A stretch of 59,662 bases of DNA, counting the filler, from Nemertoderma westbladi (Eukaryota; Animalia; Xenacoelomorpha): the NCBI GenBank assembly GCA_032718475.1. It is 3 parts of 3 records of this genome, joined end to end, with 100 filler letters (N's around TTAATTAATTAA, not from the genome) between each part and the next. Parts side by side here need not be neighbours in the genome. Positions count along the whole stretch, not along the records: positions 1 to 25,508 come from JAUCBJ010001788.1; 2 more parts are not named here. One strand, 5' to 3'. Under the pieces are notes generated by a model. It was not told the origin of the DNA. It saw nothing but the letters and a program-made list of their open reading frames with translations, and did no database searches. Position 1 is the stretch's first letter, and each line of letters opens with the position of its first letter. The translations under genes and the position numbers were made by a program. Positions 1 to 52,066 of this stretch are shown piece after piece.

Positions 1-1310
1 TATATGTTATGGCCAGTCGTCCACGACTACGCTTTCCATGAGTTGGTTGCCAGAGAAGTAGATCTGGTATGACCTCGTCTTTACTTCGCCAGCAGTGCCC
101 ACTGAATCTTAATCTGTGTTCATGCAGGGTGGTTGATACAGGTGGTATTGTACCATACAGCTCGGCGTTTGTCATGTGCTGTCTCCAGCTGATGTCTAGG
201 GCTGCCCTTAGTAGTTTTGTATAGCAACCACCAATTCGTTGTTCAAGTGATTTAGTCAGTGTCCAGGTCTCATCCCCGTATAAAAATACACTTTCCACTG
301 TGGCTCGAAAGAACTTAGTCTTCAGGTGCCTGGAGAGATCTGATTTCCAGATGGTATCCATTTTTGATAGAGCTACCCAAGCCTTTGCTTTCCTAACTTC
401 TATGTCATTTTTACTACTCTCTATTCATGATCCAAGTTACTGGAAGTCATTGACCTTCATTGACCCTATTATTGGACATGCTTTTAATGCTTCTTTGGAG
501 TTCGGAAGGTGTGAAGTGAGGTGTCTTGTCATATATTTTCCTTGTAGGGCTGACCTCGATGTTTGGTGGCTGCCCAAGCAAGTTGCGGAAGTGATTTTTC
601 CACTTCCCAACATGTTCTTCAGGACTATCGGCTTTGAGGCGCCCCTTTGCACAACTTTTCCGACCAGATACCTCATTTACAGTTTGCCAGGTAAGTCTTG
701 ATTGTTGCTGTATGTGAGCAGTTGTAATTGCTTCAGTTTTATCCTGTATGTACTTTTCCTGGCTGATGTTGTAGGCCAATTTAAGATCGTCCTTAGCTTT
801 CTCAACCTTGTTAATGTTTTTCGGTTGTTGGTTGTTCGGTTTTAACTTTGTAGGCTATCTTAAGATCTTCTCTCTTACAAGTAACCTCAGAGTTTTGCCA
901 TGGCACATACTGTTTTCGTTTGGGTTTCTGGGGGATATGCCTCTTAGCTGATTTCTTGTGGGCTGTTATTATATTCTGGTTTATTGAATCGGTGGATTGG
1001 TCTTCATCCATTGACTGAAGTGCTTCAAAGCGGTTTTGAACTTCTACTGTATAAGCATCCTTTACAGCATTGTCAGTTCTGAGTTTCTCCTAGTCATGGT
1101 TGTCACAGTAATCTGATGTAGTAATCTTGTCAAGAAACCTATATGCAGCAAGTATGGTGAACATACTGAATCGAAGGCCTTAAAGTAGTCAACGAAGTCA
1201 ACAACCAATGTCTTCTTTCTTTGTTGACCCTCTGCTATCAAAAATATGCTTAGAGTAAGAATGGGCTCCATGGTCCAACAACATTTGCAGAACCCATTCT
1301 GCTTCTCCTT
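1..1310 (-). mobile_element. RTE-like non-LTR retrotransposon (family A), rearranged and internally deleted copy
   Basis: Reverse complement is near-identical to parts of 20708-22288 (WQTVNEVSGRK, KAKAW.ALSK, GETWTLTK); the RT core is deleted near position 455; a DYFKAFDSV RT fragment lies at 1100-1300. Confidence 0.88.
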
Positions 1311-1768
1311 TATCAGTCTCTTACAATATATATCATTGTGCTATAGGATGTACGTACATGTATAAGTGACGTAATTGCTAATTTCCAAACATTCAAGCAG
1401 TATCTGAAATGTGGGGAAAAAGTTGACATTCCCAAGTAATTTCCCAAAACGCGTAATTTCCCAAAACGCTATCACCGATTTGGTCTCTGTATGGTATCTC
1501 TTCAGTGCCACAGAAACTGAACGAGCAAGCTTTTGTCAACATACATGTGACTGAACTCCATAACAGATTATTAATCTGTCAACCGCACTTATCTATTAAA
1601 ATACTTCTTTATTATCATTATAATAAAGATAAAATACACAATCTACATATGTATACATTAAACTCTATTGTTTTCACTTACAACTGTCTTGTTGACCTAT
1701 TCAATATTCATATTCTTTCACGGTTGCTAATTATTAGTAATGGTGTTTATGTCTATATTGAAATCATA

Positions 1769-2205
1769 ATGACATATTATATCAGAGACACAATTTTATG
1801 GGTGCTTTTATTTATTCCAACAAACTACAAAGCAGACCCTATAGAATATCGTCAAGCATGCTGCGCCTGTCCATCTGTATGTCCTGACCCGAATATATTA
1901 ATTGACAACTTCGACAATTGTAACAATTATATAAATCAAATAAAAGGATTATCCCCAATAACCTTGGGAGATCAAGAATGGTGCTGGTATTGCCAGGAAT
2001 GTTGCGACTATGATCCTGGAAGTGACTCCATCTATAGGGGCAATATATATGATTCCAGTCGAGATTACTCTTTTACTGTTTGTTATCACAATCTGGAAAC
2101 ACTTCGTTCCCAATGCGTAGAGGGGAATGCCTTATACAGTCCAACATGCGAGTCGGCTATGTTTCTTTGTGTATACGGACAATGTTGTGAATATGCATGT
2201 AACAC
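1769..2205 (+). CDS. Channel exon 1: signal peptide plus 16-Cys extracellular domain
   Basis: MTYYIRDTILWVLLFIPTNYKA-DPIEY resembles a signal peptide; 16 Cys up to QCCEYACN; strong donor AC|GTAAGT at 2205/2206 in phase with the acceptor at 5345. Confidence 0.75.
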
Positions 2206-5200
2206 GTAAGTGTATGTTGAAATGTAACTTTGATGAGCGTTCCCGAATTCGAGTCTCAGCTCCAGTTTCCATTTGTTTCTACTACTGTACTTTAGATCCT
2301 TATGGTTTCTATTGGAACCTAGTATAGAGTGGGTGTTATTCCTCAACATCGATTGCTACTACTAGAATCGGCATGCTGCATTGCAGCTGTATTTTTAAGA
2401 ATGCTGTGCCGGCTTGTCAACATAATTGCACCACCACAACTCCCTATCATCCATGACATTTGCTAGATTTTCCGCATCTTGAAGGCCAGTTAAGATGCGT
2501 CTCAAGAAGGTCATGTGCTGTCCACCATGCTTATTCACTCCACGAGGCTTCCAAAGCACAAGATAATGCACTGGCTGGTCCTCATGGCGAAAGCAATGTC
2601 CTGCAAAGCGGAGGCGGCTTTGTTCTAGTGTCAAGCTTGGGGGAACCAATGAGACTCCTGCAATGTCATATAGTGTCTGGTTGGAGATGTGTGCATTGTA
2701 CTTGACACAGTGAACCCGGCGTAGCATTCTTGTGCCATCTGGAGATTTGGTGTCCTCAGGAGTTAGAGCCCAGCAGGACTCCCATAGAGGAGTACTGGAA
2801 CTACTGCTGCTCTAAATAATCGGACCTTAAGTTTCCGATTAATTCTATGTGACTTCCAAATCCTGGAAAGCCTATTCAAGGCTGCCCATGCCTTTCCCTT
2901 ACGTATTCGAAGGTCCTCACCTGACTTCCGGATCCATGATCCCAGGTAATAGAAGTCGTCCACATGCTCAAGCATACCATCCTTTGAGCTTATGCTCATC
3001 CGATCAGAGATTTGCTGAGGACTTTCAAAGTTAACTGTCAAAATTTTGCTCTTTCTGGAGTTAATAAAAAGACCAACACAAGAAGCAGCCTGTTCTAATG
3101 AGTTGAGAAGCCTTTGGGATCGCTCTAGTGATTCTGAGAGTACTCCTAAGTCATCAGCAAAGTCTAGATCAGTTAGGTACTTGGCAGGATTTCCTCGCTT
3201 CTGGAGCCAGTAGGTGGAGTTACAATCACCCCATCATTGGCTGGTGATTCTGCCTTAACCGTGGTGGTTGGTTGGCTTTTCCGCCCAGTAAGTAAGTTGA
3301 TCGATTTCCATGCCTGGGATGATTGCCTGCTGTCATCGGCATCATTGATGTCATCAACCTGTTGGTTTATAAGCTTCTGTAGATTAACAGAGTATTGCCT
3401 GTTCAGGGACCTAGATGCAGCCTTAACTGCATTTTTGGCTGCTGTAGTTTTGTAGTTTTGGCGGCTCTAGTCGGGACTCTTTCTGCGCCTTATAGAGGTC
3501 ATTTCGGCACTTTTGAATTTTGTGGTCAGTCCAGTGGGCCTTTTTCCTGTTTCGACGGTATACAGGAACTGTTTCTGCAGATGCTAATGTGAAGGCAGTA
3601 TAGACCTCGCAGTGATCTGCTGCATCAGAGGAAAGAACCTCATACCTGTTGCTCAGCTGTAGTGTGAAGCTTTATCTCACACTTGGCTGTTGCAACAGAG
3701 GACCAGTCATGCCGCAGCAAGGCAGATTTCGTTGTTCTGCTAGCACGCAGACTATGTCTTACCTTGGCCACAATAAGGCAGTGATCAATGGAGAAGGGTC
3801 GAAGTGTAAATGCATTACAGTCATGTGTAGAGCTCCTGTATTTCCTACGAAACAGAATATGGTCTATCTGGGACTTGTGACTACTGGGTCCACTATGAGT
3901 CCATAGCTTTCCAGTTCGCTTCTTGAACTGGGTTCCAGCCGAAAACAATCCATTTCCAGAGAGGAAATCCTGAAGATGGATGGAATTGCGGTTAACACTA
4001 TCTCTCTAGACCCAGGGTGATGTAGGTGATTGATGCAGACTTGCATTAAAGTCTCCCAGGAATGTTAAGGATGCATGCTGATGCACTCCATTGCATTAGT
4101 AGCGGCTTGTAGATTGTGGTAGAAATTTTCCACCTCCTCTACAGGGGCAACACTAGTTGGAGAGTAGCACACAATCAGAACCACCCTATGAAACTTCTTA
4201 GCCAGTGTTCCAGAACTGTGGCAATGTGACAATGGCAATGGATGATGTGGTTAGAGATTTGGGCTATTTTGTCCAATGCTGCATGTGCTGTTGGATTCAT
4301 TGTTCATTGCCAACTGCCCCCCATGTCCTTAATCAGAACCTCATCTGTCTGTCTAGTCTGCGTTCGGTGCTCTTGAATATCCACTATGCTAAGAGAAAGC
4401 TTGTCTGCCAAGGCAGTCAGTCAGCTCACCTTGTCGCATTTGGGACCCGAGTATAAGGGTGTTTACTGAGGCTAGTCTAGTGACTTGCCTCAGATTCACC
4501 AATGGCTTCGTTGGTTGGGGTGGAACATGAGAGTGGCCTCCATCTCCAGAATCCCTCTCCCCCTCGCAAACTGACCTCCCTGGAGAACCAGGGTTTGGGC
4601 CAGAAAGGTGATCAGGAAAGGGACTCACAGAATTGTTGGCCACTCTCTCTCCAGTAGAGGTTGAGACAGGCAGCTGGTCAGGAGATAACTGACACCTGTG
4701 AGGCCAATTGTGTCCAGTAATTCCACTGGCCTCTAGTGGCCGGACCTCCGCATTACTAATGTAATCCAAAGTGGGGATTGGGGGTGTTTTTTTGCCGAGT
4801 CAACTCTCGGGGCAAATACCACACCCTGGTTTGCCATTCCACAGGGTGGGTGTCGCAGTAGAGTCAGATATGAGGCCCATCACTCATACCTACTCTGAAA
4901 CACATGACCCACCATTGGCTGTGCAGCTCATCTGCTGGGCCATGCCATGTACCCCTGCCGCCAGGTGCAGGTCGTGGTGAAGTGCACTCAGAGTGGACAA
5001 CCAACACTCTACTCCTGACCAGCCAGTGGTAGATCACCATCTGCCTGGCCAGGCCATATACCACTGCAGCCAAGTATATGGTCCTTAATCCAGGACCAAG
5101 GGTGTCCTTATCCCAGAACAAAGAGGATCCTAGTTACAGGACCAGATTTCCCCTAGTAAGAGGGTCTATGTCGAATCGACAAAATATTAGTTATCTCACT

Positions 5201-8200
5201 GCTTTAATATCCTTCCCTGCAAATGTCACCAAAAACAATTATCCAACTGGATTGATCGAATTAGATCAAAACCAAGACTCTTCTGGTAACATTGCTGTCA
5301 ATTTTATAGAAGTGAGTAATGTATTGCTTGTTCCATTTGCACAGGATTCCTCATCCAATAACAGCAGCATCAACGACTACTAAAGATACAACAACAGAAG
5401 CACCAGTAACAACAACAGCAACCACAGCCATACCTACAACAACACCAACCACACCCATACCTACAACAACACCAACCACACCCATACCTACAACACCAAC
5501 CATACCCATACCTACAACAACACCAACCATACCCATACCTACAACAACACCAACCACACCCATTCCTACAACAATGACCACTCCACCCATACCCATAACA
5601 ACGTCTCTCATTCAACCACCCATGACTACAACAAATACAGCCGAAGAGAGCCTCAAACCATTTGATGGGTGAGTTGAGTTAATGATTTCATAAATGTTAA
5701 TTTAAACTAAATAAAAATTTAATTTAGGTCAGGTCAGGTCAGGGTCCTCATATCTTGCTACCACAATTAATATGGTACTACCTAATGCTGTAACCCCAGT
5801 AGGACAGTCTGAAGACACATAGCTTATTCCAAACACTATAAAACCAGAAAACCCTACATTCAGAAATTTAAAGAAATACAATTGGTTTATACCACACCAA
5901 TATGCCATGAAAGTCTAATAGCATTTCTAAATCCCAAAGTAAAAAGGCTTTGAAACGACATCAAAGCGTCAAAACAGAACCAAACCACGATAAATGACAC
6001 TCTTCCCACTGTCAAGAACATGTGTGATCATGCGGATTATCTTGACAACAACCTCGAAGTTAGAAAAACAAAGGAATGGGTAGCTCTATTAAAATTATAC
6101 CATTTGGAAATCAGGCCTCTCCCATCAACTGGAGAACACATTCTCTCGAACCAAGTGGAAAATGTACTTTTTTTAGAGGTGAGACATGGTCTCACGAATC
6201 CCTTGAACAATGAATTGATTGTTGTCACACAAGACTTCTAAACATTAGATTGAGACCACATCGCCAGCTATGACATATATAGCTCTAGAGTAACTTAAAA
6301 GCGATACTGGACTTCGAAGAAACGAAATTGCAACACCCAACTTAGTACAGCATGTATGATAAGTTTTGAAAGACTTAATAAATGAAACCAGATTTGTAGG
6401 CTTGTTCTAATCTCAGTAATGACATTTGAAAAACATTTTGCTTATTGTTTTACAGAACACGAACAGATAACTTTGTGGATACTATACTTCAAACCAATTA
6501 CAGTGGAATAGAACCCCCACAGCAGGTGGCCAATTGTAAGTTGTTAATAAAATCTAAGGTGGCTAATTGTAAGTTGTTAATAAAGTTAATAGTTTAAAAT
6601 TTAAAGTAATAAAAAATATGTAAATATACTAGTCCAACTTGAAAGGGATACTGGACTTGGGAGACAATTATGAGGAATCGGGAAGCCTGAATTAGGATTG
6701 ACCCCATTTCCACTGTCTGAGCTCGAATAGTATCAGTTTGGAACATTGGTACCCCCGCTGCTTTGCAGGTAACAGCCAAGAGAGATGAGCCTTTTAAAAC
6801 TTTCGTTTGTCAATCCATAAAGTGGACTTTTCGGTTTTCCCATGCAGCTACCATTAGGCCCATCTCTATAGGTTATGTGCCACGCCATTTCATTTGTACC
6901 TAATGCTTGACGAAGGTTCCAGTGAGGTCAGTCAACGATAACAAAGGCCTATGCCTATAAAGGAAGGTTAGCTCAGTTGTTAGAGCGCCGGGCCTGCATA
7001 TTGGTTGTAGATTGGAGCCCCACAAGGATCCACTGAGCCCTTCATCCCATGGGGTCGATAAAATGAGGTCCAGTTGAATGACTGGGAGCAAAACAAGTGA
7101 TATGTGTATTGCCCACCACTACCTTTGGGTACCAGAAATCGAATAGAAGCCTTGCTTTACGCCTATATTTGATCATGATCATCCATACATTTGTCTTTAT
7201 TTGTCTTTTTTCATCCTTATGTGTGTTTCATATGCGGCCAAGTATTGTATTCAATTACATAGATTAAAGTCTTTCATGTAATCTGTATTGTGTTTAGTGG
7301 ATGTGATGGTGGAAGTCAATGTTAGAGATATGATTCTTGAGAAAGATGGCAGAGATACTGATTATGTTTTCACATTCTTGATAACTACAAGATGGAATGA
7401 TCCCAGATACACAAACGTAAGTTGCTATAACGTATTTAATCGGCATAACATAGATAAATAGATATAACATAGATAAATAGATATAACATAGATAAATAGA
7501 TATAACATAGATAAATAGATATAACATAGATAAATAGATATAACATAGATAAATAGATATAACATAGATAAATAGATATAACATAGATAAATAGATATAA
7601 CATAGATAAATAGATATAACATAGATAAATAGATATAACATAGATAAATAGATATAACATAGATAAATAGATATAACATAGATAAATAGATATAACATAG
7701 ATAAATAGATATAACATAGATAAATAGATATAACATAGATAAATAGATATAACATAGATAAATAGATATAACATAGATAAATAGATATAACATAGATAAA
7801 TAGATATAACATAGATAAATAGATATAACATAGATAAATAGATATAACATAGATAAATAGATATAACATAGATAAATAGATATAACATAGATAAATAGAT
7901 ATAACATAGATAAATAGATATAACATAGATAAATAGATATAACATAGATAAATAGATATAACATAGATAAATAGATATAACATAGATAAATAGATATAAC
8001 ATAGATAAATAGATATAACATAGATAAATAGATATAACATAGATAAATAGATATAACATAGATAAATAGATATAACATAGATAAATAGATATAACATAGA
8101 TAAATAGATATAACATAGATAAATAGATATAACATAGATAAATAGATATAACATAGATAAATAGATATAACATAGATAAATAGATATAACATAGATAAAT

Positions 8201-11200
8201 AGATATAACATAGATAAATAGATATAACATAGATAAATAGATATAACATAGATAAATAGATATAACATAGATAAATAGATATAACATAGATAAATAGATA
8301 GATACCTGGCTCAAATTAATTTCTATGAAATTCGATAATGCATATAATAAGCTTGCGCTTGCTCTGATGGTATATTTTTTATTAATTGAATCGGCTCTCT
8401 GGTTGTGAATACCCAGACTATTGACCCTTGGACAACTACCCCCTGACAATTGCTACCCGGACTATAATTTCCCCTTGGGCATTGCCCCCCTGGACAATTA
8501 CACCATGGAAAATTACACTCCAGACAATTGCACCCCCGGACGATGGCCTCCCAAGGACTATTACCCCCACGAAGAAGTCCATTTCAAATGGAAAGGGCAA
8601 ATAGTATGTCAATTGCGTATTCCACATGGGAGAATTGCTTCTGAATTTATGTATGAAGAATATCGCTAGATATATGTATAACAAATCACAAAATAATGCT
8701 ATTCGTTCTAGGATACATCATTAAATGACTACCTTGACTCGACTATTTTCTTGTTCTTGGATATGATGTTGAACATTTGGACATTTTTTTAAAAAAATTT
8801 ATTTAAATAAAGTCATTCAATGAAGAATCACATTGACTGCCTATTTAATGTCCGGGCCGTACGATTGTATTTTATTATTTCTTCAGATTCCACACTTTAA
8901 CACATCGATTACACTAAAAGAAAGTGACGGGTTGAGCGATTTGTGGATTGTCGTCATGGAAACCTGGGGGGCGTTGCGAAAACAGAATGACCGAGATGTA
9001 ATGAGGGCTATAATATGGGCCAATGGTAATGTGAGAACCATACGGAGGTTAGGAAGAGTTAGGGTTGAAAATTTTAACAAATCGAAAAAATTACAACTAG
9101 ATTACTTTATTTCAACTTCAACTTATTTTATTATATTGAAAAGGAATAGACAAAGAAACATACAGTAATTAATGTATGCCTTAATATGTTTTAATCTTTT
9201 AATTAATTTCTACCTTGCTTGGAAACCTATTTTTGCAATTATATTATTCAGCACATTACAAAAACAACTATTACTGCAATCATATTCTTACTGCCAAATA
9301 AAGTAAATATCTAAAGTTAATAAATTTTCTCTCCTATTTAAGACAAACAAGACGGGTTAAATGCGATCCAGAAATGTTTCTATTCCCCTTCGACTTCATG
9401 AGGTGTCGGATTCTATTGAGGGCTGAATATGCTAATGATCGTAAGTGGTGACATACTGAAAATTTACATTTTGTAAAATGAACAGTTACGAATGTTGTAA
9501 TATATGTTTAGTCAGGTGAGGACTTTCGAATATGTAAGGGAAAAGCATGGGACGCATTGAATGGGCTTTCCAGAATTTGGAAGTCACACAGAATTCATCG
9601 GAAACTAAAGGTACGATTATTTAGAGTAGCAGTAGTTCCAGTACTCCTCTATGGGAGTCCATGCTGGATTCTAACTGCTGAGGACACCAAATCTCTGGAT
9701 GGCAAATTCACAAGCTACAAGCACAAACATTCATGCTACGCCGGGTTCACTGTGTTAAGTACAATGCACGCATCTCCAACAAGACACCATATAACATTGG
9801 AGGTGTCACTACTACTACTAGGATCGGCATGCTGCATTGCAGCTGCATTTTTAAGAATGATGTGCCGGCTTGTCAACAAAATTGCACCGCCACAACTCCC
9901 TATCACCCATGACATTTGCTAGATCATCCGCATCTTCAAGGCCAGTGTCCTTTAAGATGCGTCTCAAGAAAGTCATGGGCTGTCCACCATGCTTATTCAC
10001 TCCATGAGGCTGCCAAAGTACAAGATTATGCACTGGCTGATCCTCACGGCGAAAGCAATGTCCTGCAAAGCGGAGGCGATTTTGTTCTAGTGTCAAGCTT
10101 GGGGGAACAAATGAGACACCTCCAATGTTATATAGTGTCTGGTTGGAGATGTGTGCATTGTACTTGACACAATGAATCCGGCGTAGCATTCTTGTGAATG
10201 TGCCATCCAGAGATTTGGTGTCCTCAGCAGTTAGAGCCCAGCATGGACTCCCATAGAGGAGTACTGGAACTACTGCTGCTCTAAATAATCGGACCTTAAG
10301 TTTCCGATTAATTCTCGGTGACTTCCAAATCCTGGAAAGCCTATTCAAGGCTGCCCATGCCTTTCCCTTGCGTATTCGAAGGTCTTTCTTTTAAGCTGAC
10401 TTACGGATCCATGACCCCAGGTAACAGAAGACGTCCACATGCTCAAGCATACCATCCTTTGAGCTTATGCTCATCCGATCAGAGACTTGCTGAGGACTTT
10501 CAAAGTTAACTGTCAAAATTTTGGTCTTTCTGGAGTTAATAAAAAGACCAACACTAGAAGCAGCAGGTTCTAATGAGCTGAGGAGCCGTTGGGCTCCCTC
10601 TAATGATTCTGAGAGTACTCCTAAGTCATCAGCAAAGTCTAGATCAGTTAGGTACTTGGCAGGATTTCCTCGACTTCTGGAGCCAGTAGGTGGAGTAATC
10701 ATCACCCCATCATCATTATGATGATCTAAGGACATGCCCAACCACAAGAATGAACAAGAATGGTGCAAGTGTGTCTCCTTGGAGGACGCCCCATAACACT
10801 TCAAATGGTTCTGTGTCACCGTAAACAGTAGACACAAATGTTGTCGAACCATCGTATACTGATCTAATTGCTGCAATAATTTCATCAGGAATCCCATATA
10901 ATGAAAGTATGCTGAACATACGTGAGCGAGAGACTGAATCAAAGGCCTTGAAGTCAACAAAGATAACAGCCAGATGCCTGTCTTTCTTTTTTGATAATTC
11001 TTCAATTATCCTTCTAAGTGCCAAAATGGGCTCCATGGTCCCACGACCTTTACGGAACCCATTCTGATTTCCACGGAGCAGTCTCTCAATCGGATCCCTG
11101 ATGCGATTTAATAGAATCCTATTGTATAGCTTTGCAGCAATCGAGATCAATGAGATTCCCCGAAAAGAACCATAGAGTGTTAGGTTGCCCTTCTTGGGAA

Positions 11201-14200
11201 CTAGCACCAACTTATTTGTTTTCATTTCTTGTGGGACTCTTGTTGTTCGGTACATGTCTACTATGATGGGATAGATGAGCTTTAAACACTCAGGTATTTT
11301 AAAGACCACATTGGTACCCCCAAGCTTGACAGTAGAACAAAGCCGCCTCCGCTTTGCAGGACATTGTTTTCGCAGTGAGGACCAGCCTGTGCACAGTCTT
11401 GTGCTTTGGCAGCCCCATGGCGAAAATAAGCATGGTGGACAGCCCATGAATTTCGTGAGACGCCTCCTAAAGGACACTGGCCTTGAAGATGCGGATAATC
11501 TCTCGAACTACTACTTTCCAATGGCTTCATTTGACTTACGGATTACTGGGGAGATCCAGCCATATTTCTATAAAATTATCTAACCTTTTTATTGATTTTT
11601 ATTGTGGGAACCAATAATGCAAAGGTATTAATAGCAAAACGTACTACAAGTAAGTATACGCTCTCAGGGCAAATGCCTCACACTAATTTACCATTCCACA
11701 AGGTGGGTGTCGCAGTCAGATATGGGGCCCATCTGTGGCTGATTACTCATTGTACCCACCATTTGCTATCCTATCCTGCACAGCTCATCTGCTGGACCAT
11801 GAACTGCACCCCTGCTGCCAGTTTAGGTCCAGTTAAGTGCACTCAATATGGAAATGATTGCGCTCTACTCCTGTCCAGCCTTTGGTAGATTACCATCTGC
11901 TGGTCAGCCATATACCCCTTCAGCCGAGTATAGGGGTCATTAACCCACGACCAATGGGATCCAAATCCCAGAACGAAGGGTGGAAATATGAGAACCGAAT
12001 ACACAAATGTTCTCACTTTGGATCTCGAGAGTCTAGAAATTCTTCACTGGATACGCTAATATGCAGGGGTTGGAAGGTCTAAATAGGTCTAGCCGTTCTA
12101 AATGCGGTCTCAACTACCAGTCTAATTTTACTCCATATTCGTCCCACTAATGTCCACCAACAACTGCTAAACCCCCGCGAACAGTGGAAGAATCGAATAA
12201 TCTTCCTATTCTCGGGCGTACAGCTGTTGCTAACTGTGTCAAATGTGAAACCTCACCAGGGCTACTCTCTCCAGAAAGGGAAAATCAATTTTATTACTCA
12301 AATAGTGAAGCCTTATCAGTCAACAAACAATCTGTAGTTCAGGGTGCGTACTGGGTTGCGAGCTAATTTAATTTTAAAATTTTATCCGAAAAAATCTAAT
12401 AATTCTGAATACCGAATGTGCTAAACCTGGGTCAAACAGCTGTCAATAGGACCGCATTACCTAGCGTTTCGAGTACCAACTCAATGTCTAATACTGTCCA
12501 ACCTTCCTGCAATCGACTACTCAAAATAAGTAAATGAATAACGTTGTAGCTAATATTTTGTCCACAAAAATAGTACTGACATGTTTTATTTCAATCACTT
12601 AACTTATGTACTAAAATAACATAAACGAGAGAAATTAAACCCCAATGAAACCTAATCCGGTAAAACAAATGCAATGAAAACTACTGATTTATGCCACTAA
12701 TTTAATTTGCGTCGGCTAAGCTGGTGCACACAAAACGTCTATTAAAGCCAACCTTTACCTAGGTAATGCGCTAATGCTCCTCAAATATCTAAATATTCCA
12801 GTCCTAATTTAAATAATTTTAAAGGCGCGTTTATAGCGTTTTAATTTGAATAATTACGCTTAATATCGCTTCCTCTTTTATACTACATTTTGCTGAAACT
12901 AAATTTGTTTGGTCGGACTTAGTTTATTAGCTAAGTTGACTAGTAGGTTGGCTAGGTTGGTTTATTTTGTTGGACTTGGGTATCTAAGATGGACAGAAAT
13001 ACCGAAACTGGCTTAGTTATCTAAATGGGCTAAATTGGACTGAAATATGAAAGGTGTTTCCGGCCTGTCAATGAAGCAGAACCCCCACGGCATCCGCCGA
13101 TCTCTATAGTGATCCCTAAAACATGCCCGGTACTTCCCTTTAATAAATAGAAAACCCATAGTTTGTCATCTCGTCCACCTGCTCCCAAACGCGCTCCCGG
13201 TAGGTACTTCCTACGCAGTCTACTCCATTATAGCGCAGAGTGCCACTCAACCGGTAAGCCGGTGTAGAGTACTGCAAAGCAAATAACGCAGTTAAGTTAG
13301 CAAAATCTGATTACATAATAATAAGGTCAGTCAGTCTTTCACGGTAGAAATTTCTGCATTAATTATAGCAAAAGTACAAAAGTAAAGCAAAATCATAACA
13401 AACAAAGATTACAGCTTAATTCAACAACAAATCACATGACAGCTTCCAACTACAAAACATAACAAGAATAATAACAAGTCGCCAATGGTCAAGCAAATTC
13501 TCCTGCCGTTGGAGCAACCGAAATGGCTAAGCCAATGAGTGAGCTGGATTACAACCCTCCTGGCTCCTTTCTCTGAGTATTATTACCTTATATGGTTATG
13601 AAATTGTTTTATTCTATAATAGACTTATATACACGAATCTAACACTATACGCAAGCTATTACGTAATGGTGAATTCTTACATAGGGATTACTGTGGCTAT
13701 AATTTTTACTATCAAATTCGTTTGTGGTGGTATTCCTATTAAATATACACTGTAAATAACAATGTGTTAACTATGAATACAACTATTACGCCCAAGTAAA
13801 TATAAATGCACCCAAATGTTCCTCTGTCCCTAATATGACTAAAAATGACCGCTAATCCTTATCCTTTCACCAATTTCCTATAATAACTATTACGATTTTT
13901 TACTTAAATACCAAATACATACAGTAATACTGTATTACTTCAATTTTCTTCCGAATAGCACTAATATCATTCATCTGGGAAAATCTTAAAAAATTCAGGT
14001 CTGTTTCTTACTTACTAAATATTCGGACGATTACCTACTAAATATAAAATGATTGCCTAGGCATTGCAGGACCAGATTATGCCCTTAATAAGAATAACAA
14101 TATGTTGGCAAGCTAAGCTGTGTTAATAAGAGGGTCTCTGCAGCCACAGATCTCTGCAGCACCTCCTTTATGCTGCATGGGAAGTGGCAAGTTTTATGTA

Positions 14201-17200
14201 TCAATGACCAATAATACCTGACCTGACGTTGCATGTAAGACATACTACGGAACACTTCAATGGTACTTTAAAAAGTGCCAATCCCAGCCAGAAGTTACTT
14301 ACACATTCGTTGACTGCGGACGATACCATGTGGCACAACAATGACAATGTTCCATTTACTGGTACCGCTTTTACCGTATGACCAATACTAGGAATAAAAA
14401 ATTCCCAACAACCTCACATGTGTAGATGCCTTTCTCTTCATTAATAGTTGCTGAAGATGTGAAGTTAATGTATGTTAAGAAATTATTCGATTTAATTTGT
14501 ATTCTTAATTTTTTTTACACATTGTTCGAATGATAATGTCATGATGGGCTTGGATTCGGAGATGGGGCAGGTTTATCGCGATATTACGATTGATATGACT
14601 GACTCCAGCACTTTAAATTTAGTGTCTGTCTAATAATTGTAGTCAGAGTGTTATAAATTGGTTTTCGTACAGTAATACATAATCATTTTGAATTATTTAC
14701 ATAAAATTTTTGGTCGTTGATGCGTAAAAAGTACTGAAAAGAGCATACTAAACTAATGTGTAAACAGTTATTACAATGTAAATTTAATTTAACAATATAC
14801 ATGTTTTATTCCTCAGGTATTGATGGAACTAGGATTGCTGCATATTGGTCGAAATCAAACAATGTCTCGATTTCCTTAACAAATGGTGGCAAAGTTGATC
14901 AATTCCAATATAGAACTCAAGATGTTGGAATGCGGACTGTCAACAATAGACCCACCCAGGGTAATGATGTACTACAATCAGTACTACCATCAATAGTATT
15001 GGGTGAATGGGTGGTTTTATCTATATACCTATAAAAGTCAAATTCTCTCTGTTATGCTCGAACTCCTCCGAAACGGATGGAGGGATTGCGCTGGGACTTA
15101 AAACATGTGTGTATAACTTCAACGAGCGCTCATTATAGGCCACTTTTCGAAAAGTTTAATTCACGTTCGGTACTGGTACCGGTTTTGGTGGAACCGGTAC
15201 TGGCCCGGTTTTTTTTAAATTACCATACATATTAATGGTACTGCATTCTGCATTAGGTAGAGGCCTAGCAATACAATTCAATTCAAGTGAACCCAATGAG
15301 CTCGTATATTATTAATAAGGGAAACCAGAGTAGACTGCACAGATCAATCAAGCGGAAAGTACTAATATGTCTCAAGTATATTTGAGACAATATTATATTA
15401 TTATATAAACACGTCATCATAATATTTATAGTGTACTAAATTTTTTTTTGACACAGCATCTATTTTTGTGCATTAACAGGAGCTTGCAGTAGGTTTAAAA
15501 TTAAGTCACAATTTTCGTTAGATAGATTATAAAGCAGCTAGGTTTAAGTTTTCTAGGAAGTTATTTAGATCATAAGTTTCAGGACGGTAAATCGTACCTA
15601 TAAGTGATGGTTTTTTATTTGATCCGGAGATGCTGACCCAAGTTGATACACAGTCTTTGAGTAATATGCCTGAGCGGTGAGTGTAACTTAAATGGTTCCT
15701 AATGTAGGTAGCAGTACCGCCTCTGCCTAGTTTTCCATAATGTCTGTTGTTAACAAGTGGTTATGAGTATCCGTTTATACTTACTGTTGTGAGATCGGTG
15801 TTTTCGGTTAAAAAACGTTTCAGTAAATGTGAGTAGGTCAAATTGTTTGTCTAATATGTGAAGGTAGTCTGTGGTTGCCGTAAGGTTTTTATTTAGGCTC
15901 CTACAGTTTATAGGGTAGACCGAAAGAGAGTTATTCTCCGTTATAGTTACTCTGAAAGAGAGTTATGTTTTTGAATTTTTCTTCTGAGAAATATGTATCG
16001 TCAGTGTTATTTGAATTTAAGTTATGGTCCGGGTCAATGTTGTTAAATGTATTATCATATTCACTGTAATTATTTGGTAAGAGACATTCATTGAAGAGAA
16101 AAGGTGGTGCCAGAAAAGGGAAGAAAAAACAAATTTCCTATGTAAAGAAAACCAGCCTGAAAATGTTCACTAGTATACAAAACTAAAACAAAATCAACAC
16201 AAAGTAACCAATATTTCCAGACCAACACTAATTAATGAGTTTTAAAGACTGGATATTACACAATGATTTTTAATTTTTTTCCCAGCGGGCATTCGCCTTA
16301 GCATTGTTACCCGGTTAGTTATGCTTCAAATAGCAAATATCGTCTGTATATTAACTACATTGTATAGATAAGATAACAGTAACACACAAGTAAACTGTAC
16401 ACACAAAGTAATGTCATATTCTCCCTCCACCTATATACGGATTGTATTATATATTATAAACAGCTGGATAGCTTAGCTAATAAACCAATCACCAAAGCAG
16501 TCAATCATTGAGAGTTAATTAGTTAATCTACACTATGCCCCCTTCCCTCCAGTTTGCAATCTACACTATGTCCCCTCCCCTCAAGTTTACAATTAGAGAT
16601 TAAGATGGTCTGGTTCTCTGCGGTTCCTTCGCCCTCGGCGGCATACGATCCATCCATCAGAATTAGCCTGGCCGTCGTTGTTGATATCCTGCCTGTATGA
16701 TTCATTAGCCTGCTGGTCCGTTCCTTCATCTGATTGTATACTTCTCCTATTGGTTGGAATGGACCGTTCTGAGACATCTTGGGCATGTTCTGGAATATCT
16801 CGTCTGAGGAAGCGGCGGTTCCTCCAATACGTACGGCGATTTTCACAGCGTATAAGGTAACTACGTCCGCGCTTGCAGATATTAATACCTTAATAACTGT
16901 CCCCTTTCTATCCCACAGCTTTGTCCTGTTATGTTGCATCCTGACCGCTTCACCCGGGTGCAACCAATCTAGGGAATGAGTCCCATGATCATATGATTGC
17001 TTCGACTTTTCACGATGTTCAGTGGTCTTCCTATCTGCTGATGCCACTTCTGAATCTGTTATTTGTTTAAAAGATCCTGGAGCTGTTGGCAAGTGCTCCT
17101 CATTTGTCGCCCGAGTAACCTCTGGGCAGGGCTTAGACCATCCAACTTTGGCGTATTACGATATTCGATCAAAGCGTGGGTGAAGGATGGTGTGGTTATG

Positions 17201-20200
17201 TCCCCATTATGGCAAACCTTCTTGATAATGGATTTGATGATTTTGACTCCCGATTCCGTATAACCATTAGACTCAGGGTGGTATGGGGATGATGGATCAA
17301 GATCTATATTCCATTCTCTACAGAAATGATGGAACTCTTTGCTCTTGAATTGTGGGCCTCCATCTGTAGTGAGACGTACTGGAACACCCATATATTCCAT
17401 CCACATCCGAACTTTCTTAATAGTGACAGTGTTGGTTACCCCTCCTCGGTCACAGTCATATACATCAGGCCATCCCAATAGTTTATCTGTAATGAGGAGT
17501 TAGGCCAGCCCTGCATGATCAAAGAAGTCTGCTGCCACAGCCTCGCAGGGGAATGATGGTACAACATCTTGTAATAGCGGCTCCTTGAGGTGACTTTGTT
17601 TGTGGAGCTCACATTCTTTACACTTAGCCACCATTATGGTGGCATCGTTAACGATGCCTGGCCAAAAAAACGCATTGCCTCACTCGTTTAAGTACTCGGT
17701 CTCTCCCCTGATGTACCGCATGGAGATCTTGAAGCACTTGCTTTCTCATAGGAGATGAAATTAAAACTCGGCATCATTGATACATAATGACTTCTTCAAC
17801 TACTGAGAGACTGTGTCAAATGTTCCAGAATGGATGTAGGTTAACATCTAAAAGTTTTTTGTTAACAGGGAATCCATCTAGAATACCATCTAGAGCAGCA
17901 TCGCCACGCTATCGTGTTCGTCACCTGCGCTGACCAATCCCATTGGATTCCTGAGGAACTGGTATCTGCCCCATGGTGTCAAAAAGGTAGTAAGAGCTTG
18001 ACTCTTTTTAGATAGTTCGATTTGCCAGTATCCATGTCTGGAGTCCATGGTTGAAAACAATGTCATCCCTGAAGGTATCTTAGATACTTCTTCCTTAGGT
18101 ACCGGTGTTGGGTGGACTGGTCGTTTAACGCTGCGGTTTAGGTTAGTATAATCAATAGTTATTCTCGGTTCTATTGAGTGTTTTTTGGGAACTACAACCA
18201 TGGGACCATGGCTTCATTAGGACCTACCTTTCGAATTATCCCTGCATTAAACATATCGTCGAGCTGTTTCTTTACTCTGTCCTCCCAGTGGATTGGGATA
18301 TTATAGGGTTTGTACCTCTTTGTAGGGATAGCACCTTCATTCAGCTCGATGTCAGCTGGCGGACTAGCCATTGGCTTGAGCACGCCGTCACTGGCGAAGA
18401 CATCCTTGAAATCATGATAGAGTGCCTGCTTCCTCTCCTCTGTGCACAGCCCCACTTTCGAAATGGTTGTTGTCACTTTTGCCACAGGCAAACCCCCAGA
18501 TGCCCCAGGTATAAGAGATAATGCCGATATCTGAGCGTGATATGCTTCAATCTTTCCTCTAAATCAATGACGGTTTTTTGGCATGTCGCATCGCACTGGA
18601 CATGGGGCCAATCCCTTGGAATTAAGCCAAGGGCCTCACATCCCTTGTCACTGAGCAGGGGGTGGGGTGTTTTGCGTTCTCAAGGACGTGTGCGATGTTT
18701 TGATACACCTTATTACCGAGTTGTATTGTAAGTTTGACCTTTCCATGAGATTCCAGCTGTTGACCGTCTGGTCCTACCAATAGTTCTTCGTCTGGGTAGA
18801 GAGTTATATTCGTTCCTGTTCCCATATCAACAAGATCATCTAGACTAATCGCGTCTCGTTTTGCACCTGTGTCTGCGAGCCAGGCCATATCCCCAGTGTG
18901 GGTTGGATTGTCAGCGTGCATTGTTCTTAGGGTAATGAGACGACTATCTAGTGTTTCTTCCAAGTGATTAAGAGGTGTGGCGGTGTTAACTGTCCCCATT
19001 TGGACCACATTTAGGTTATGCGGTTTTCTTTTAAGTGGTCTCTTGCAAAACTTGATTAAATGCCCTTTAACTCCGCAATTGAAGCATTCAATATCCTTAG
19101 CGCGACATTTATCCTTGTCGTGGATGCGTCCACAGCTGTGACAATTCACCATGTCATTTTTCAATCGAGTTAACGGATCTGGTCCTGATCTTTTCTGAAG
19201 TACTCCAGTTTTGTACGTTGATTTCCGTAGCGAAGCACATGTAGCTGGTATAGCATCTTTGATCTCCACGACCGACATTGCATCAGACAGTTTGATAGAT
19301 GGGTGTTCGAGATCATTGTCAACAGATTCACTCGCTTCGATAGATTTAGCCGTGGCTAAGACGACGGCCAAGGTCAGATCCTTCATTGGAGTTTTAAGTA
19401 TCTCTTGATGTATTTTCGACTCGTGAAGTCCAGCAATAAATGCTGTCATTATACGTTCGCTACGGTGATAATCCACCATATTACACACTGTTAAGTAACC
19501 ACAAGCTCTATCACTGGCCTGAAGGGCCATATAAAACTCAGTGATGGGATCTCCTGGTTGTTGTTTGCGATTGGAGAAGGTGACCCGCTCTATCATCTTA
19601 TGTCTTTCTTCTCTGAGGTACTTTCGCAGCTTCACCACGATAGCTTTATTATTATCAGTATCGGAGACGTAGATCAAACCTTTGGACCATAACTTTCTCC
19701 ATTCTGGATCTACGGCAGACCTCAGTTGAGCACACTGGGCTCTTGCTGTTACATCTGCTAAGCGTACTCCAGCGGTATAATCGTCCCAACGGATCTCCCA
19801 ATCATCGAAATCCGCAAATGTGAGATCAGCTGGGCATCTAAGACTGGGTAGATCCATTTTTAATGGTTTAGCTGGTACCATCGTGACTGGCGTTGGTTCA
19901 ACCATGCGGGATTCTAGAACAGATCTCCTGATGTTGATTTCCTTCTGAAATGTTAGCACTGTCTTCACTTCATCTGATTAGAAACTGCATACTCAGCTAC
20001 ATCATCGTCACCATCGCCAACTTCCCACAGTTCCGATACCTGTTGGTGAATATCAATAAACTTGTTGATAGCACCTTTAATGTCCTCGAAAGCCTGAAAT
20101 AAAATTTCGAGTTCGACACTACTTGGTTCTTTCGTATTTGGCTAATTCTGCGCGTAGGAGGTTAGTGGTGCGAGTGCAGTGACTCAAGTATCCACTACAA

Positions 20201-23200
20201 TGTTTAATCATTTTCTTGATTTTGTGGCCTTCCATTATATACATTCTGTATGTAAATCATGTCTATAAGTATAAGGTTCGGATAAAATACTGCGCCATAG
20301 TTAAGCTTCAAATAGCAAATATCGTCTGTATATTAACTACATTGTACAATTACATTACATGTATAACTACATTGTATGTTCATTTCTTTCTATTATAGTA
20401 GTATAAAAAATATAGGAAAATGAAATACTTAGCTTGTTGTACAATTATAAAATTTATAATACACCCACTACCAGTTCTGGGCGAGAATCTATTAAAAAAT
20501 AGGATCCTTCACACTATATTTTACGGTACGCTCTCGCTCTGACTGGTATAGGTTACTAATGGGTATCATACATCGCTTAGGAGGTTAAATCTGTTAACAT
20601 GTTCAATCGGCGAACTATTAGTATCAGGGTGCTGCTGCTGGGTGTCGTGTGCTGTAGATTGGGATCGAGGACAATGGCCCTGATTACTGGTACCATTACT
20701 GGTAACCTGAAAACCAACAACCGAAAACATTAACAAGGTTGAGAAAGCTAAGGATGATCTTAAATTGGCCTAGAACATCAGCCAGGAAAAGTACATACAG
20801 GATAAAATTGAAGCAATTACAACTGCTCACATACAGCAACAATCAAGACTTACCTGGCAAACTGTGAATGAGGTATCTGGTCGGAAAAGTTGTGCAAAGG
20901 GGCGCCTCAAAGCCAATAGTCCCGAAGAACGTGTGGGGAAGTGGAAAAATCACTGCAGCAACTTGCTTGGGCAGCCACCAAACATCGAGATCAGCCCTAC
21001 AAGGAAAATATATGACAAGACACTACCTATAGAGACAGGGGACTTCACACCTGCTGAACTCCAAAGAAGCATTAAAAGCATGTCCAATAATAAAGCGAGT
21101 GGATTAGATGAAATTCCAACGGAGGTATGGAAAACAGGAGTGCTAAACAGACTATTATTGAATGTTTGCAACCGGATGTTAAAAGGGGAAAAGCCTCCAC
21201 CAATTTGGACTAAAGGTCAACTAAAGCCTCTCCCCAAGAAAGGAGACCTCGGTATACCAACAAACTATCGTGGGATCTTTCTGCTTGTAGTAGCTGCCAA
21301 AATATACAATAAGTATCCAGAAGTAATCGTTGCTGCCATTGGATTGTTAGATTGTGACACATTAACTGAGTATTTCTCAAACCTGGCTGGCGTACTGCAA
21401 GGTGACACATTAGCACCATTACTATTTGTAATTGTACTGGATCACACAATGAGGATGGCCACAAAGGGTGAAGATCTGTGATTCACACTTCAAGAATGCA
21501 GAAGTAGTAGATATCCGGCAACTACAGTCACAGACACCGACTTCGCGGATGACATCGCCCCGCTCTCTATTATGCTAGCAGATGCACAGCTTCTACTGAA
21601 TAAAGTGGAGAGTGCTGCTAAGGAGGTTGGATTGCATATAAATGCTACCAAGACCGAATTCATGACTTTTTATGTTGATGGAAACTTGACAACCATTGAT
21701 AATAATCAACTAAGGAAGGTTGACGACTTCCAGTACCTAGGATCATTGATAGAGAATAGCAAAAAGGACATAGAAGTTAGGAAAGCAAAGGCTTGGGCAG
21801 CTCTATCAAAAATAGATACCATCTGGAAATCAGATCTCCCCAGGCACCTGAAGACTAAGTTCTTTCGAGCCACAGTGGAAAGTGTATTTTTATACGGGGG
21901 TGAGACCTGGACACTGACTAAATCACTTGAACAACGAATTGATGGTTGCTACACAAGACAACTAAGGGCAGCCCTAAACATCAGCTGGAGACAACACATG
22001 ACAAATGCCGAGCTTTATGGTACAATACCACCTGTATCAACCACCCTCCGTGAATGCAGATTAAGATTCAGTGGGCACTGCTGGCGAAGTAAAGAGGTCA
22101 TACCAGATCTACTTTTCTGGCAACCAACTCATGGAAGGCGTAGTCATGGACGACCGGCCATAACATATATAGATCAACTTGAAAGGGATACTGAGCTTGG
22201 GAGAAATGAAATTGCGACAACTATGGAGAATCGGGAAGCCTGGAAGGATCTCATTTCCACTGTCCGAGTTCGCTCGACTTAGTAGTAGTACTGGTAACCA
22301 TCTCGATGTAGTCGCTATGGTGACTGGCAGAAACGAACGTCTTAAGCAACTTGATGTCAGCGTGACTTGAGATACAATGTGATTTATTGTTGTCTTTATC
22401 CACTCTGGCAGTAAGGTTTCCATTTCGAGTATAGACGGAGTAAAGCAACTTATTACGCTTCATCTCGTTTAGCTTACCAAGTAGATTGGCTCGGATCTTG
22501 GTGAGGTGTTCGTTAAAATAAAGCCCAGCTGGAAGATTGGCTTTTGGGACAGAGGAGAAAAAGAAGATTGTTGCGATGAATGTACTGTTCCCTTTCATTG
22601 GCTTCCAATTGCAGGGCTGCGATTTGTTCTTTCATCATCTTATTTTTGGAGAGAGCCTGGTTGATGGTAAATGAGAGGGCATGGATATCAACATCGTTTA
22701 ATTTTTCTTCGAGCGCATCGAGTTTTGTGAGATGAGTTTTGATGTTAGAATCTCGGAATGAAGTTTATTTAGTGTGTCTTCGATTCGATCGAGTTTAGCC
22801 AAGTCGGATGCTGCATTTGCGGCATGTTCGTCAGTTCGTTGTGTAGTTTTGGAGGGCAGATGTTTTATAAATCTAAATCTTATGTGCAAAGTTCGGCAAT
22901 TACTGGAGAAAACTGTTAGGCCTGTACTGGTATGCTGTACTACAGTACTACATCCTATCAGCAATGATGATTATCTGGAAATACCGGGTAACCCACCTCG
23001 GGTATTGAATTATAAAACTTTTTTTCAATGAGCACAGCTTAGCAAAGTCGACTGACATTGTCATCACGGTCGTATCGATGGAGGTATTGAACAGTTGACT
23101 GATGGTCTAACCACTTTGCTAGTAGCAGTATCCCCACGCGCAGTAACTAGCGGTATTTATTTATTATCCTGACAATATTTGTTAATTTATCAGTTATTTT

Positions 23201-25286: not shown

Positions 25287-25508
25287 TTGATTACTCCCGA
25301 AAATTTAAATGAAACCCTTTTTTTTATTTTATTGTTTTGGTTAGAATAACACGCCACTGTAACCTGCTCCTTTCCATTATTTGATAATTTAAAATTGAAA
25401 ATAAAAATAAAATAAATTAAATTAAAATCTGGTATCATTGTGCTTTTTATTATTAAAAATTGTTAATAAAGATGTTGATAAAATGAAAAAATAAATAAAA
25501 AAATAAAA

Positions 25509-25608
25509 NNNNNNNNNNNNNNNNNNNNNNNNNNNNNNNNNNNNNNNNNNNNTTAATTAATTAANNNNNNNNNNNNNNNNNNNNNNNNNNNNNNNNNNNN
25601 NNNNNNNN
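25509..25608. other. Assembly gap linker (N44-TTAATTAATTAA-N44)
   Basis: Exactly 100 nt; the 12-mer places stop codons in all six frames; identical to the linker at 51967-52066. Confidence 0.97.
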
Positions 25609-26179: not shown

Positions 26180-28551
26180 ATGGCCAGAGTGCCTTTAATG
26201 CATTATTCAAGAATCGATGGTAATTGTGAAAATCAAAATCCCATGATGGTAAGTAATGCCTACTAAGGATTAATAAAAGCTGACAAAAAAACTCATTAAA
26301 AAACATCTGAAGCTTAAATTTAAATGAGTCTCCAGCGCAAATTGGTCACATGAAATAATATTTTGTTTATTGTTTTGGTTAGAATACCAATACACCGGCA
26401 CTGTAACCTGCTCCTTCCCTCTAATGTTTTTTATTCGCGGAAACCTTTGAAAATTATTTAATAATTTAATTATTAACTAATATTTAATTCATTAATAATA
26501 AATTAATGGACTAAATAGATACCTATTGTTTTACGTTGGTGGAGTCCATTTGTATTAGATAATTGATGAAGTCCATTTGTAATTATTTAATAACTAATAA
26601 TTAAATAATATTACTTGCATTTAAACGTAATATCATATCCCGTGTTGTTAGCCGTTGCGGGAGACAGAACCTCATAGAGGCCGCCTGAGAGGGCGAAGTC
26701 CATGTTACCCAGAGTGGAGGCCGTCAGTGAGGGCGTGGTCCATGGTACCCAGGATGGAGGACGCATTAGAGGGTGGATGGGGTCCATGGTACCCAGGATG
26801 GAGGCCGTCAAAGAGGGAAGGGTCCATGGTATCCAGGATGGAGGCCGTCTGAGAGGGCGGGGCCCATGGAACCCAGGATAGAGGCCGTCAGGGAGGGCGG
26901 GGACCTTGGTACCCAGGGTGGAGGCCGTCAGAGAGGGAGGGGTTCATGGTACCCAGGGTGGAGGCCGTCAGAGAGGTAGGGGTCCATGGTACCCAGGGTG
27001 GAGGCCGTCAGAGAGGGAGGGGTCCATGGTACCCAGGGTGGAGGCCGTCAGAGAGGGAGGGGTTCATGGTACCCAGGGTGGAGGCCGTCAGAGAGGGAGG
27101 GGTCCATGGTACCCAGGATGGAGGCCGTCGGAGAGGGCGGGGTCCATGGTACCCAGGGTGGAGGCCGTCAGAGAGGGAGGGGTCCATGGTACCCAGGGTG
27201 GAGGCCGTCGAAGAGGGAGGGGTCCATGGTACCCAAGGTGGAGGCCGTCAGAGAGGGAGGGGTCCATGGTACCCAGGGTGGAGGCCGTCAGAGAGGGAGG
27301 GGTCCATGGTACCCAGGATGGAGGACGCATTAGAGGGAGGGGTCCATGGTACCCAGGGTGGAGGCCGTCAGAGAGGGAGGGGTCCATGGTACCCAGGGTG
27401 GAGGCCGTCAGAGAGGGAGGGGTCCATGGTACCCAAGGTGGAGGCCGTCAGAGAGGGAGGGGTCCATGGTACCCAGGATGGAGGACGCATTAGAGGGAGG
27501 GGTCTATGGTACCCAGGGTGGAGGCCGTCAGAGAGGGAGGGGTCCATGGTACCCAGGGTGGAGGCCGTCAGAGAGGGTGGGGTCCATGGTACCCAGGGTG
27601 GAGGCCGTCTGAGAGGGAGGGGTCCATGGTACCAAGGATGGAGGCCGTCAGAGAGGGAGGGGTCCATGGTACCCAGGGTGGAGGCCGTCAGAGAGGGAGG
27701 GGTTCATGGTACCCAGGATGGGGGCCGTGTTGCCGATCAGAATAGCATTTAATGGTCTCAATGTATGAAATTAAATTAAGTTTTAAAGCAACTAGCCACT
27801 AAACACATAAATTATTGTTGTTTGCGGTCATTTTGCGCCATTATCTCAATTTTTTGCACATTCTTTCCAGTCTATTTTTTGCATCATTTTCATTTTTCGG
27901 TCGAAATTTTATTGGTATTTCATCGTCTAAGCATACAAATCACAATTGGTGTGATGTGTGAAATGCTATCCCGATCCGCAACCTGGGAGACGGCACCAAA
28001 GAGCAGTTTACTCTGCTAAGGGGTACCGGCATTTTATATATGAACAATTTGTATTTTTTTTAAAGTATCCTTATTCAGTGTTCTATAGCGCTCCTTTCTA
28101 TCTTTTAACCTGTACAGTTACAAATTAATTTATTGTTTTGGTTAGATTCAGCCTTCTGTAACCTGGGTTTTTAGTGAAACCCTGGTTTTCTTCACATGGA
28201 GGTAAACTGCAAAGTAAAATCAAAGTCTGTTATACTTAACATATTTAACGTAAATTAACAAATAACGTTATATTATTTATTTAGTATACTAAGGGAAAAT
28301 AGTATACAGATACTAAAACCATTTGAGAGATATTTTGCGGTTTTGTGAAACTTCATCCAATAATTTACATTCCACAGACGTTTCTTCCATTGTGCAGTGG
28401 CTTGCCCAACCACCTCAAGGTTCCCACATCAGCAGATACTCCTGAATTGACCCCCGTGCCCTTACTAAGTGACCAATCATGTTTGGAGCACTTACGCCGC
28501 CAAGACTATATAGTAGAGAGACAAAGGAATACAACTCCAACCAATTTTGAG
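26180..28551 (+). CDS. CCNE: Probable upstream coding exons of cyclin E (26180-26248 MARVPLM...ENQNPMM; 28378-28551 TFLPLC...RRQDYIVE...NFE)
   Basis: Strong splice sites (ATG|GTAAGT, CCACAG|, GAG|GTGAGT); phase 0-0, in frame with the cyclin E exon at 36276; RRQDYIVE resembles the KKHQYEI N-terminal motif of cyclin E2 (recalled). Could instead belong to another gene. Confidence 0.55.
26677..27728. repeat. GC-rich 40-bp minisatellite (GGTCCATGGTACCCAGGGTGGAGGCCGTCAGAGAGGGAGG), ~26 copies
   Basis: Direct inspection; recurring variant units containing GGACGCATTA. Confidence 0.96.
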
Positions 28552-49547: not shown

Positions 49548-51570
<2,023 letters not shown>

Positions 51571-51966: not shown

Positions 51967-52066
51967 NNNNNNNNNNNNNNNNNNNNNNNNNNNNNNNNNN
52001 NNNNNNNNNNTTAATTAATTAANNNNNNNNNNNNNNNNNNNNNNNNNNNNNNNNNNNNNNNNNNNN
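51967..52066. other. Assembly gap linker (N44-TTAATTAATTAA-N44)
   Basis: Same 100-nt linker as 25509-25608. Confidence 0.97.

Follow-up and report, generated by a model that had tools for sequence, protein, structure and literature searches.

A gene model from Nemertoderma westbladi predicts a divergent Cys-loop receptor subunit with a cysteine-rich head on a Thr/Pro-rich stalk

The window analysed in this work is a stretch of 59,662 nucleotides (nt) from Nemertoderma westbladi (GenBank assembly GCA_032718475.1) that consists of parts of three genome records joined end to end. At positions 1769-25286 of its plus strand, we have identified a gene model of nine exons that join in phase into a single frame of 632 amino acids (aa) with no stop or frameshift, and all eight introns are GT-AG introns. 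The predicted order of the parts is a probable signal peptide, a domain with 16 Cys (the head), a Thr/Pro stalk of 108 aa, and a complete but divergent Cys-loop subunit. The gene model was built from genomic sequence and was extended by hand to nine exons from the three junctions (2205/5345, 5668/6456, and 6535/7298) proposed in an earlier sequence-only reading of the window. All three junctions are GT-AG with matching phases, and the exon coordinates, the 16 Cys with the CC-x3-CN end, and the Thr and Pro counts given in that reading were reproduced. The span of the gene is clear of assembly gaps, as none occurs before position 25509.

We propose that the locus makes one membrane protein of 632 aa. 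This protein would be a Cys-loop subunit that is divergent and likely of the anion type, and a stiff, likely O-glycosylated spacer would keep its disulfide-rich head at a distance from the channel. The head would probably bind a large extracellular partner, which would anchor or target the receptor or bring the partner to it. That partner might be the matrix, the surface of a neighbouring cell, or a microbe. An anchor on the outside could replace intracellular scaffolding, for which the short M3-M4 loop would leave little room. Localisation or capture is favoured over direct gating because a stiff stalk of ~100 residues suits a spacer better than an allosteric linker. We consider this proposal to be evenly balanced between right and wrong, with the risk that the fusion itself is mistaken already included.

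Exon 1 (1769-2205, +) encodes the probable signal peptide (residues 1 to ~22) and the head (C31-C144). The signal peptide was called on hydropathy alone, from a hydrophobic stretch at residues 8-16 with a mean Kyte-Doolittle value of 2.87, which leaves the signal peptide of the sequence-only reading as probable. The 16 Cys lie between residues 31 and 144 (114 aa), the gaps between successive Cys are 0, 1, 3, 12, 20, 2, 2, 0, 25, 10, 10, 6, 4, 0, and 3 residues, and the C-terminal end is CC-x3-CN. Both secretion and the formation of disulfides in the head are probable. Exon 1 is real coding sequence because none of 3000 nucleotide shuffles of the head domain gave 16 Cys (mean 3.9, maximum 11) and because its open frame of 145 codons has p ~5e-5 at local composition. 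The frame of exon 1 is also open for 104 codons upstream of the ATG at 1769 (1457-1768, +), where an in-frame ATG at 1649 is a candidate alternative start. This upstream open frame has p ~9e-4 at local composition, with no codon-position GC bias and no Pfam match.

Exon 2 (5345-5668, +) encodes the mucin-like stalk at residues 146-253, where 45 Thr and 25 Pro are found in 108 residues. The exon is 324 nt long and symmetrical (phase 2-2). Its core is a 27-nt repeat of 7.3 copies with units of 27, 24, 27, 27, and 27 nt, all of which keep the frame. The stalk is likely O-glycosylated. A stiff stalk of ~100 residues would presumably span roughly 25 nm, if the mucin rule of thumb that we assume applies.

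The splicing of exons 1, 2, and 3 into one mRNA, and with it the claimed fusion of head and stalk to the channel, stands as the best gene model and is quite probably correct. The donors at 2206 (GTAAGT) and 5669 (GTGAGT) both conform to GTRAGT and, by a simple scoring of our own making, rank at the 99th percentile among 1420 GT sites. By the same scoring, the acceptors 5345 and 6456 rank at the 97.5th and 99.7th percentile among 1492 AG sites. Both donors are phase 2, as both acceptors require, and reading through either donor leads to an immediate stop. The GTRAGT context is found at 22 of the 1538 TAA and 13 of the 936 TGA triplets in the window (1.4%), hence donors account for the stops that end exons 1 and 2 better than gene ends would. 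Twelve strong donors occur upstream of exon 3, and a phase-2 open frame of more than 100 codons is found only at 2206 and 5669.

Exon 3 has no in-frame ATG. No workable alternative that combines an ATG, a hydrophobic segment, and a phase-2 donor was found in 1-6455, and none with a donor of any phase was found within introns 1 and 2. Alternative first exons starting at the in-frame ATG at 5319 or within the open reading frame (ORF) at 5168 were rejected for a poor hydrophobic core or the wrong phase. The latter ORF is short (5168-5383, +), has a strong phase-0 donor (5312) that precedes the acceptor of exon 2 by 33 nt, and could be a cryptic or decayed exon. Intron 1 consists mostly of a broken non-LTR (long terminal repeat) retrotransposon, a long interspersed nuclear element (LINE), at 2345-5123 (-), which holds endonuclease-like and reverse-transcriptase fragments (RVT_1 E 1.4e-5). 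This antisense LINE accounts for 2779 of the 3139 nt, with ends set by comparison with other copies in the window, and 360 nt of the intron remain without it. Vertebrate GABA-A beta genes have a phase-2 intron after the signal-peptide exon. If this holds, the gain of the module by exon shuffling would be easy.

The channel part is encoded by exons 3 to 9, all on the plus strand, and the features that it retains point to a divergent Cys-loop subunit. Exon 3 (6456-6535) encodes the start of the ectodomain with the first helix, assigned by position. Exon 4 (7298-7416) encodes ectodomain strands and has a WNDPR motif at its end. Exon 5 (8887-9047) covers the loop A region and further strands. Exon 6 (9343-9440) encodes the Cys-loop, where the pair C381 and C395 is separated by 13 residues and FPFD at 388-391 represents the [F/Y]PxD motif at the tip of the beta6-beta7 loop. 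Exon 7 (14817-14960) covers the stretch from loop F through loop C, as judged from its position and phase. Exon 8 (23613-23775) encodes beta10, the pre-M1 Arg465, M1, the M1-M2 linker, and the first half of M2. Exon 9 (24914-25286) encodes the end of M2, M3, an M3-M4 loop of ~30 residues, M4 (by position), and the stop codon at 25286. The M1 residues R465 (Arg26'), P477 (Pro14'), F489 (Phe2'), and W490 (Trp1') are in exact register. The [F/Y]PxD motif and these M1 positions are among those that define the Cys-loop/Pro-loop superfamily (PMC4795631). M1 (1.65) and M3 (2.31) exceed the 19-residue hydropathy cut-off of 1.5, and M2 was placed by position, as was M4. The donors at 9048, 14961, and 23776 are weaker than the other donors of the gene, hence exon boundaries may be slightly off. 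Ten A(A/T)TAAA hexamers are found at 25400-25502, 3' of the exon 9 stop.

Searches with single exons point to the same family. All 60 listed PDB matches of exon 8, of 104, are pentameric channels (best E 4.1e-4), among them chains of GABA receptor beta and of ELIC (E 4e-4 to 9e-4). All nine PDB matches of exon 6 are acetylcholine receptor (AChR) epsilon or GlyR beta, at weak E-values of 0.7-2.8, and one of the three matches of exon 4 is a weak one to residues 94-128 of pHCl-A (E 1). Thus, three of the five channel exons searched (4, 6, and 8) match pentameric channels in colinear order. Exon 5 alone had no PDB or Atlas match, exon 9 alone had no PDB match, and neither PF02931 nor PF02932 was reached in single-exon Pfam scans of six of the seven channel exons. 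None of the eight candidates for exon 8 among longer proteins scored, and its plasmid matches were dismissed as unrelated. A metagenome locus (L001, 1252-1536) has a 94-aa frame in which the seeded word of 8 residues and two Trp positions agree with the M1-M2 region. This frame lies beside a bacterial rRNA operon with no ectodomain nearby, and the match was judged to be due to chance.

The subunit is likely of the anion type with a preference for chloride, because the M1-M2 linker has no acidic residue in either register and because AR at 498-499, in the register anchored on M1, aligns with the anionic PAR. This alignment agrees with the PDB alignment of exon 8. Two of the six anionic M3 markers (K/T29', D26', aromatic 24', C20', F15', and E10') are matched, namely Y24' and C20', when the register is anchored on the M3 Cys. 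Formation of a channel may require further subunits beside this one.

Several points weigh against the proposal. The splicing of exons 1, 2, and 3 is predicted from genomic DNA, and a look-up of RNA data for 1700-2260 listed none, which weighs on neither side. An AATAAA word lies at 5710, 38 nt past the stop that is reached when exon 2 is read through. Only 1.8 kb of the window precede exon 1, hence a distant first exon is possible. The register of the AR motif and that of Pro23'/Leu9' differ by three residues because the distance from M1 to the M2-M3 Pro is three residues short, and four of the six anionic M3 markers are unmatched, which leaves the anion type unsure. What the head binds is conjecture. 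No homologue with the same architecture was found, and no paralogue is present within the window.

The locus could also hold two genes, in which exons 1 and 2 would encode a separate secreted protein of 254 aa (or exon 1 alone a protein of 146 aa) and the channel would take its signal peptide from another exon, outside the window or missed. The immediate stop after either donor and the AATAAA at 5710 together with a TATA-like word at 5837, both within intron 2, would suit this explanation. However, phase-2 GTRAGT donors always read as stops, and separate genes that end at both donors would need a 1-in-70 coincidence each because such a context is rare. The phases also agree at both junctions, introns 1 and 2 offer no ATG with a hydrophobic segment and a phase-2 donor, and AATAAA-type words are common, with 12 in 1700-9000. 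Two separate genes are unlikely. The AATAAA at 5710 could end a secreted product of exons 1 and 2, and a secreted isoform may exist beside the fusion.

With the fusion accepted, the head might be a sensor that gates the channel, where a large ligand or a pull on the stalk would open the pore in place of a lost neurotransmitter site. In the ungapped register, Glu, Gln, and Leu stand where loops B, C, and D would have aromatic residues, and the Pro-Asp pair of loop A is lost. These losses would fit a subunit with a non-classical ligand. They would also fit a non-binding accessory subunit, as such subunits lose these residues too, and the alignment of exon 6 there resembles AChR epsilon. A Trp is also present at the reference position of loop A, and other aromatics could fall back into place with small shifts. 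The N-terminal domain of the prokaryotic channel DeCLIC influences gating kinetics (PMC9897478), but the DeCLIC domains pack on the ectodomain and have no stalk of 100 residues. We rate gating by the head as rather improbable. Equally doubtful is an independent animal invention in which a chloride-type channel that lost its neurotransmitter pocket would be opened by a large ligand or a mechanical pull acting on five stalked heads, each with a disulfide fold not described before. Such a protein would be a tether-gated pentameric channel.

Relatives of the head were sought in several ways. The Pfam scans of the head and its sub-fragments gave no usable family, as a YncO stretch at E 0.01 fell below the cut-off of that family and looks spurious. 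Atlas gave no match to the head, and a true channel exon (exon 5) was blank there too. None of the 20 head candidates among longer proteins scored, in a search that did not extend to proteins of the head's own length. One PDB sequence matched at E 2.4, and none of the 105 pattern matches in metagenome contigs is a relative of the head. The two single-sequence models of the head have a mean predicted local distance difference test (pLDDT) score of 40.8 and 49.4, which is too poor for a fold call. Foldseek gave no match at E 0.001 for either model, and the best VIA-align Z-scores were 3.1 (root-mean-square deviation 3.5, 61 residues aligned) and 3.7 (root-mean-square deviation 3.2, 41 residues aligned), with none at Z 5. 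These fold-search results are noise.

The absence of matches says little, because the organism has no close relative in the databases. The intronless TraB-domain gene of the window (30928-32067, -), which served as a gauge of this coverage, is very divergent from all database relatives. Its best identities are 40-55%, spread over many animal phyla, and in a tree built from 36 of the 120 listed matches, hand-picked for phylum spread, its branch is long and unplaced. The 16-Cys head may represent a domain family that is not yet catalogued.

The sequence-only reading had likened the head to the Ly6/three-finger proteins. On this basis, the head would be a diverged tethered modulator or ligand that folds back on the interfaces between the subunits of the pentamer it belongs to and adjusts gating. 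An LU domain of ~80 residues contains ten Cys, opens with L-x-C-x-x-C, and closes with CC-x4-CN (PMC4839075). The likeness is not borne out by these features. The head has 16 Cys against the CD59 positions 3, 6, 13, 19, 26, 39, 45, 63, 64, and 69, it has no aliphatic-x-C-x-x-C, its end is CC-x3-CN, and no LU family was matched in the Pfam scans of the head. The CC...CN end would suit a tethered modulator, as would a CxxC at 72-75 that is flanked by aromatic residues, and Ly6 proteins are described as modulators of nicotinic receptors. A remote three-finger relation is conceivable because the two low-confidence models agree on a strand (69-75) and a beta-hairpin (~88-108). However, a Thr/Pro stalk, presumably extended and stiff, would be a poor linker for folding back, and the channel looks like the anion type instead of the nicotinic type. 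A tethered modulator is distinctly unlikely.

That the gene is a decaying or non-conducting paralogue, with a drifted pore and a role as a membrane-anchored display platform only, or a young pseudogene, is highly improbable, since the shortfall of three residues from M1 to the M2-M3 Pro, the polar and charged M2 residues, and the lost loop-A pair would agree with decay but 632 codons carry no stop or frameshift and C-x13-C, FPFD, Arg26', Pro14', Phe2', and Trp1' are all kept.

Other elements were identified within the introns of the gene and in the rest of the window. A 19-nt minisatellite with 45 perfect copies occupies 7445-8300, with its start 28 nt beyond the donor of exon 4. Introns 6 and 7 also contain broken LINE copies (9510-11978 and 20704-22282) that retain reverse-transcriptase fragments, and copies related to the intron LINEs are found at 1-841 and near 58209-58583. 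Intron 7 also holds a fragmented LTR-retrotransposon-like element (16523-19977, -) with a gag-like ORF and reverse-transcriptase and integrase fragments. The gag-like ORF has what we take to be zinc-knuckle-like motifs. A second integrase fragment is found at 56212-56739. A GC-rich 40-nt tandem repeat of 26 copies occupies 26677-27728, downstream of the channel gene. An intronless gene of 602 aa (38364-40169, -) is enolase-like (Enolase_C E 3.7e-27), presumably enolase-4-like, and apparently lies antisense within an intron of a cyclin gene, whose exon-bearing ORFs are at 37380-37634, 38061-38357, and 40663-41142 (Cyclin_C E 2.4e-4). A gene of the alpha-tubulin type (49548-51265, -) has at least two coding pieces. 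The two assembly gaps, at 25509-25608 and 51967-52066, each consist of two runs of 44 N around a 12-nt spacer.

The sequence-only reading started from classical metazoan Cys-loop subunits, in which the ligand-binding domain follows soon after the signal peptide. The premise that animal Cys-loop subunits have no extra N-terminal domains is outdated. In the lobster genome paper, 66 of 116 Cys-loop receptors carry C-type lectin, pentraxin (PF00354), or LDLa (PF00057) domains and are described as a novel chimeric class, which its authors report from lobster and allied crustaceans alone (Polinski et al., 2021; PMC8221624). Thus, animal Cys-loop receptors with extra domains are already known as a kind. 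CLECT, PF00354, and PF00057 gave no Pfam match on exon 1, its sub-fragments, or exon 2. No Cys-rich head with a mucin stalk on a Cys-loop subunit was found in the literature searched, the coverage of which excludes most subscription journals and domain-architecture databases. The structural literature still calls extra N-terminal domains absent from eukaryotic Cys-loop receptors (PMC9897478), and the animal precedent found is an observation of a genome paper with no functional test mentioned in the accessible part (PMC8221624). If the model is true, the occurrence of a second, unrelated head on a mucin-like stalk in a distant lineage of animals would mean that this channel family has acquired extracellular modules more than once. 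The architecture is notable to specialists, yet it is one gene model without homologues.

Compared with the anionic receptors (GABA-A beta, GlyR, GluCl, insect RDL-type, and pHCl), the predicted subunit exhibits the same C-x13-C with FPFD, pre-M1 Arg, M1 Pro, AR at the M1-M2 junction when the register is anchored on M1, M3 Cys20', and aromatic 24', and its best sequence matches are to them. It differs from them in ~230 extra residues before the ectodomain, in binding-loop aromatics that are mostly unmatched, in an M2 register that is off by three, and in a short M3-M4 loop. The Ly6/uPAR LU domain is similar to the head as a small Cys-rich extracellular domain with a CC...CN end, but the head has 16 Cys in 114 aa against 10 in ~80, with different spacing and different start and end motifs.

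Prokaryotic pentameric channels with PBP-I, MCP-N, and Cache domains have been reported (PMC549065). DeCLIC has two jelly-roll N-terminal lobes, such domains are stated not to have been observed in eukaryotic homologues (PMC9897478), and a later preprint still assigns extra N-terminal domains to prokaryotes (10.1101/2025.02.27.640520). These multidomain channels share with the predicted subunit an extra N-terminal module on a pentameric channel and a short cytoplasmic loop. They differ as Cys-less bacterial or archaeal channels with globular domains that adjoin the ectodomain. Among molluscs, a survey reports the canonical architecture in most Cys-loop sequences (PMC13174522).

The lobster chimeric receptors are alike in that an animal Cys-loop subunit carries domains of the extracellular-binding type, and both are genome predictions with no ligand or function assigned. 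They differ in that the head here matches no assigned family and stands on a Thr/Pro stalk, whereas no stalk is mentioned for lobster in the accessible part of that paper, and in that the host did not group with arthropods in the one-gene TraB-domain tree, where its long branch makes the placement unsure. The combination of head and stalk differs from the lobster domains, and the principle has a published animal precedent.

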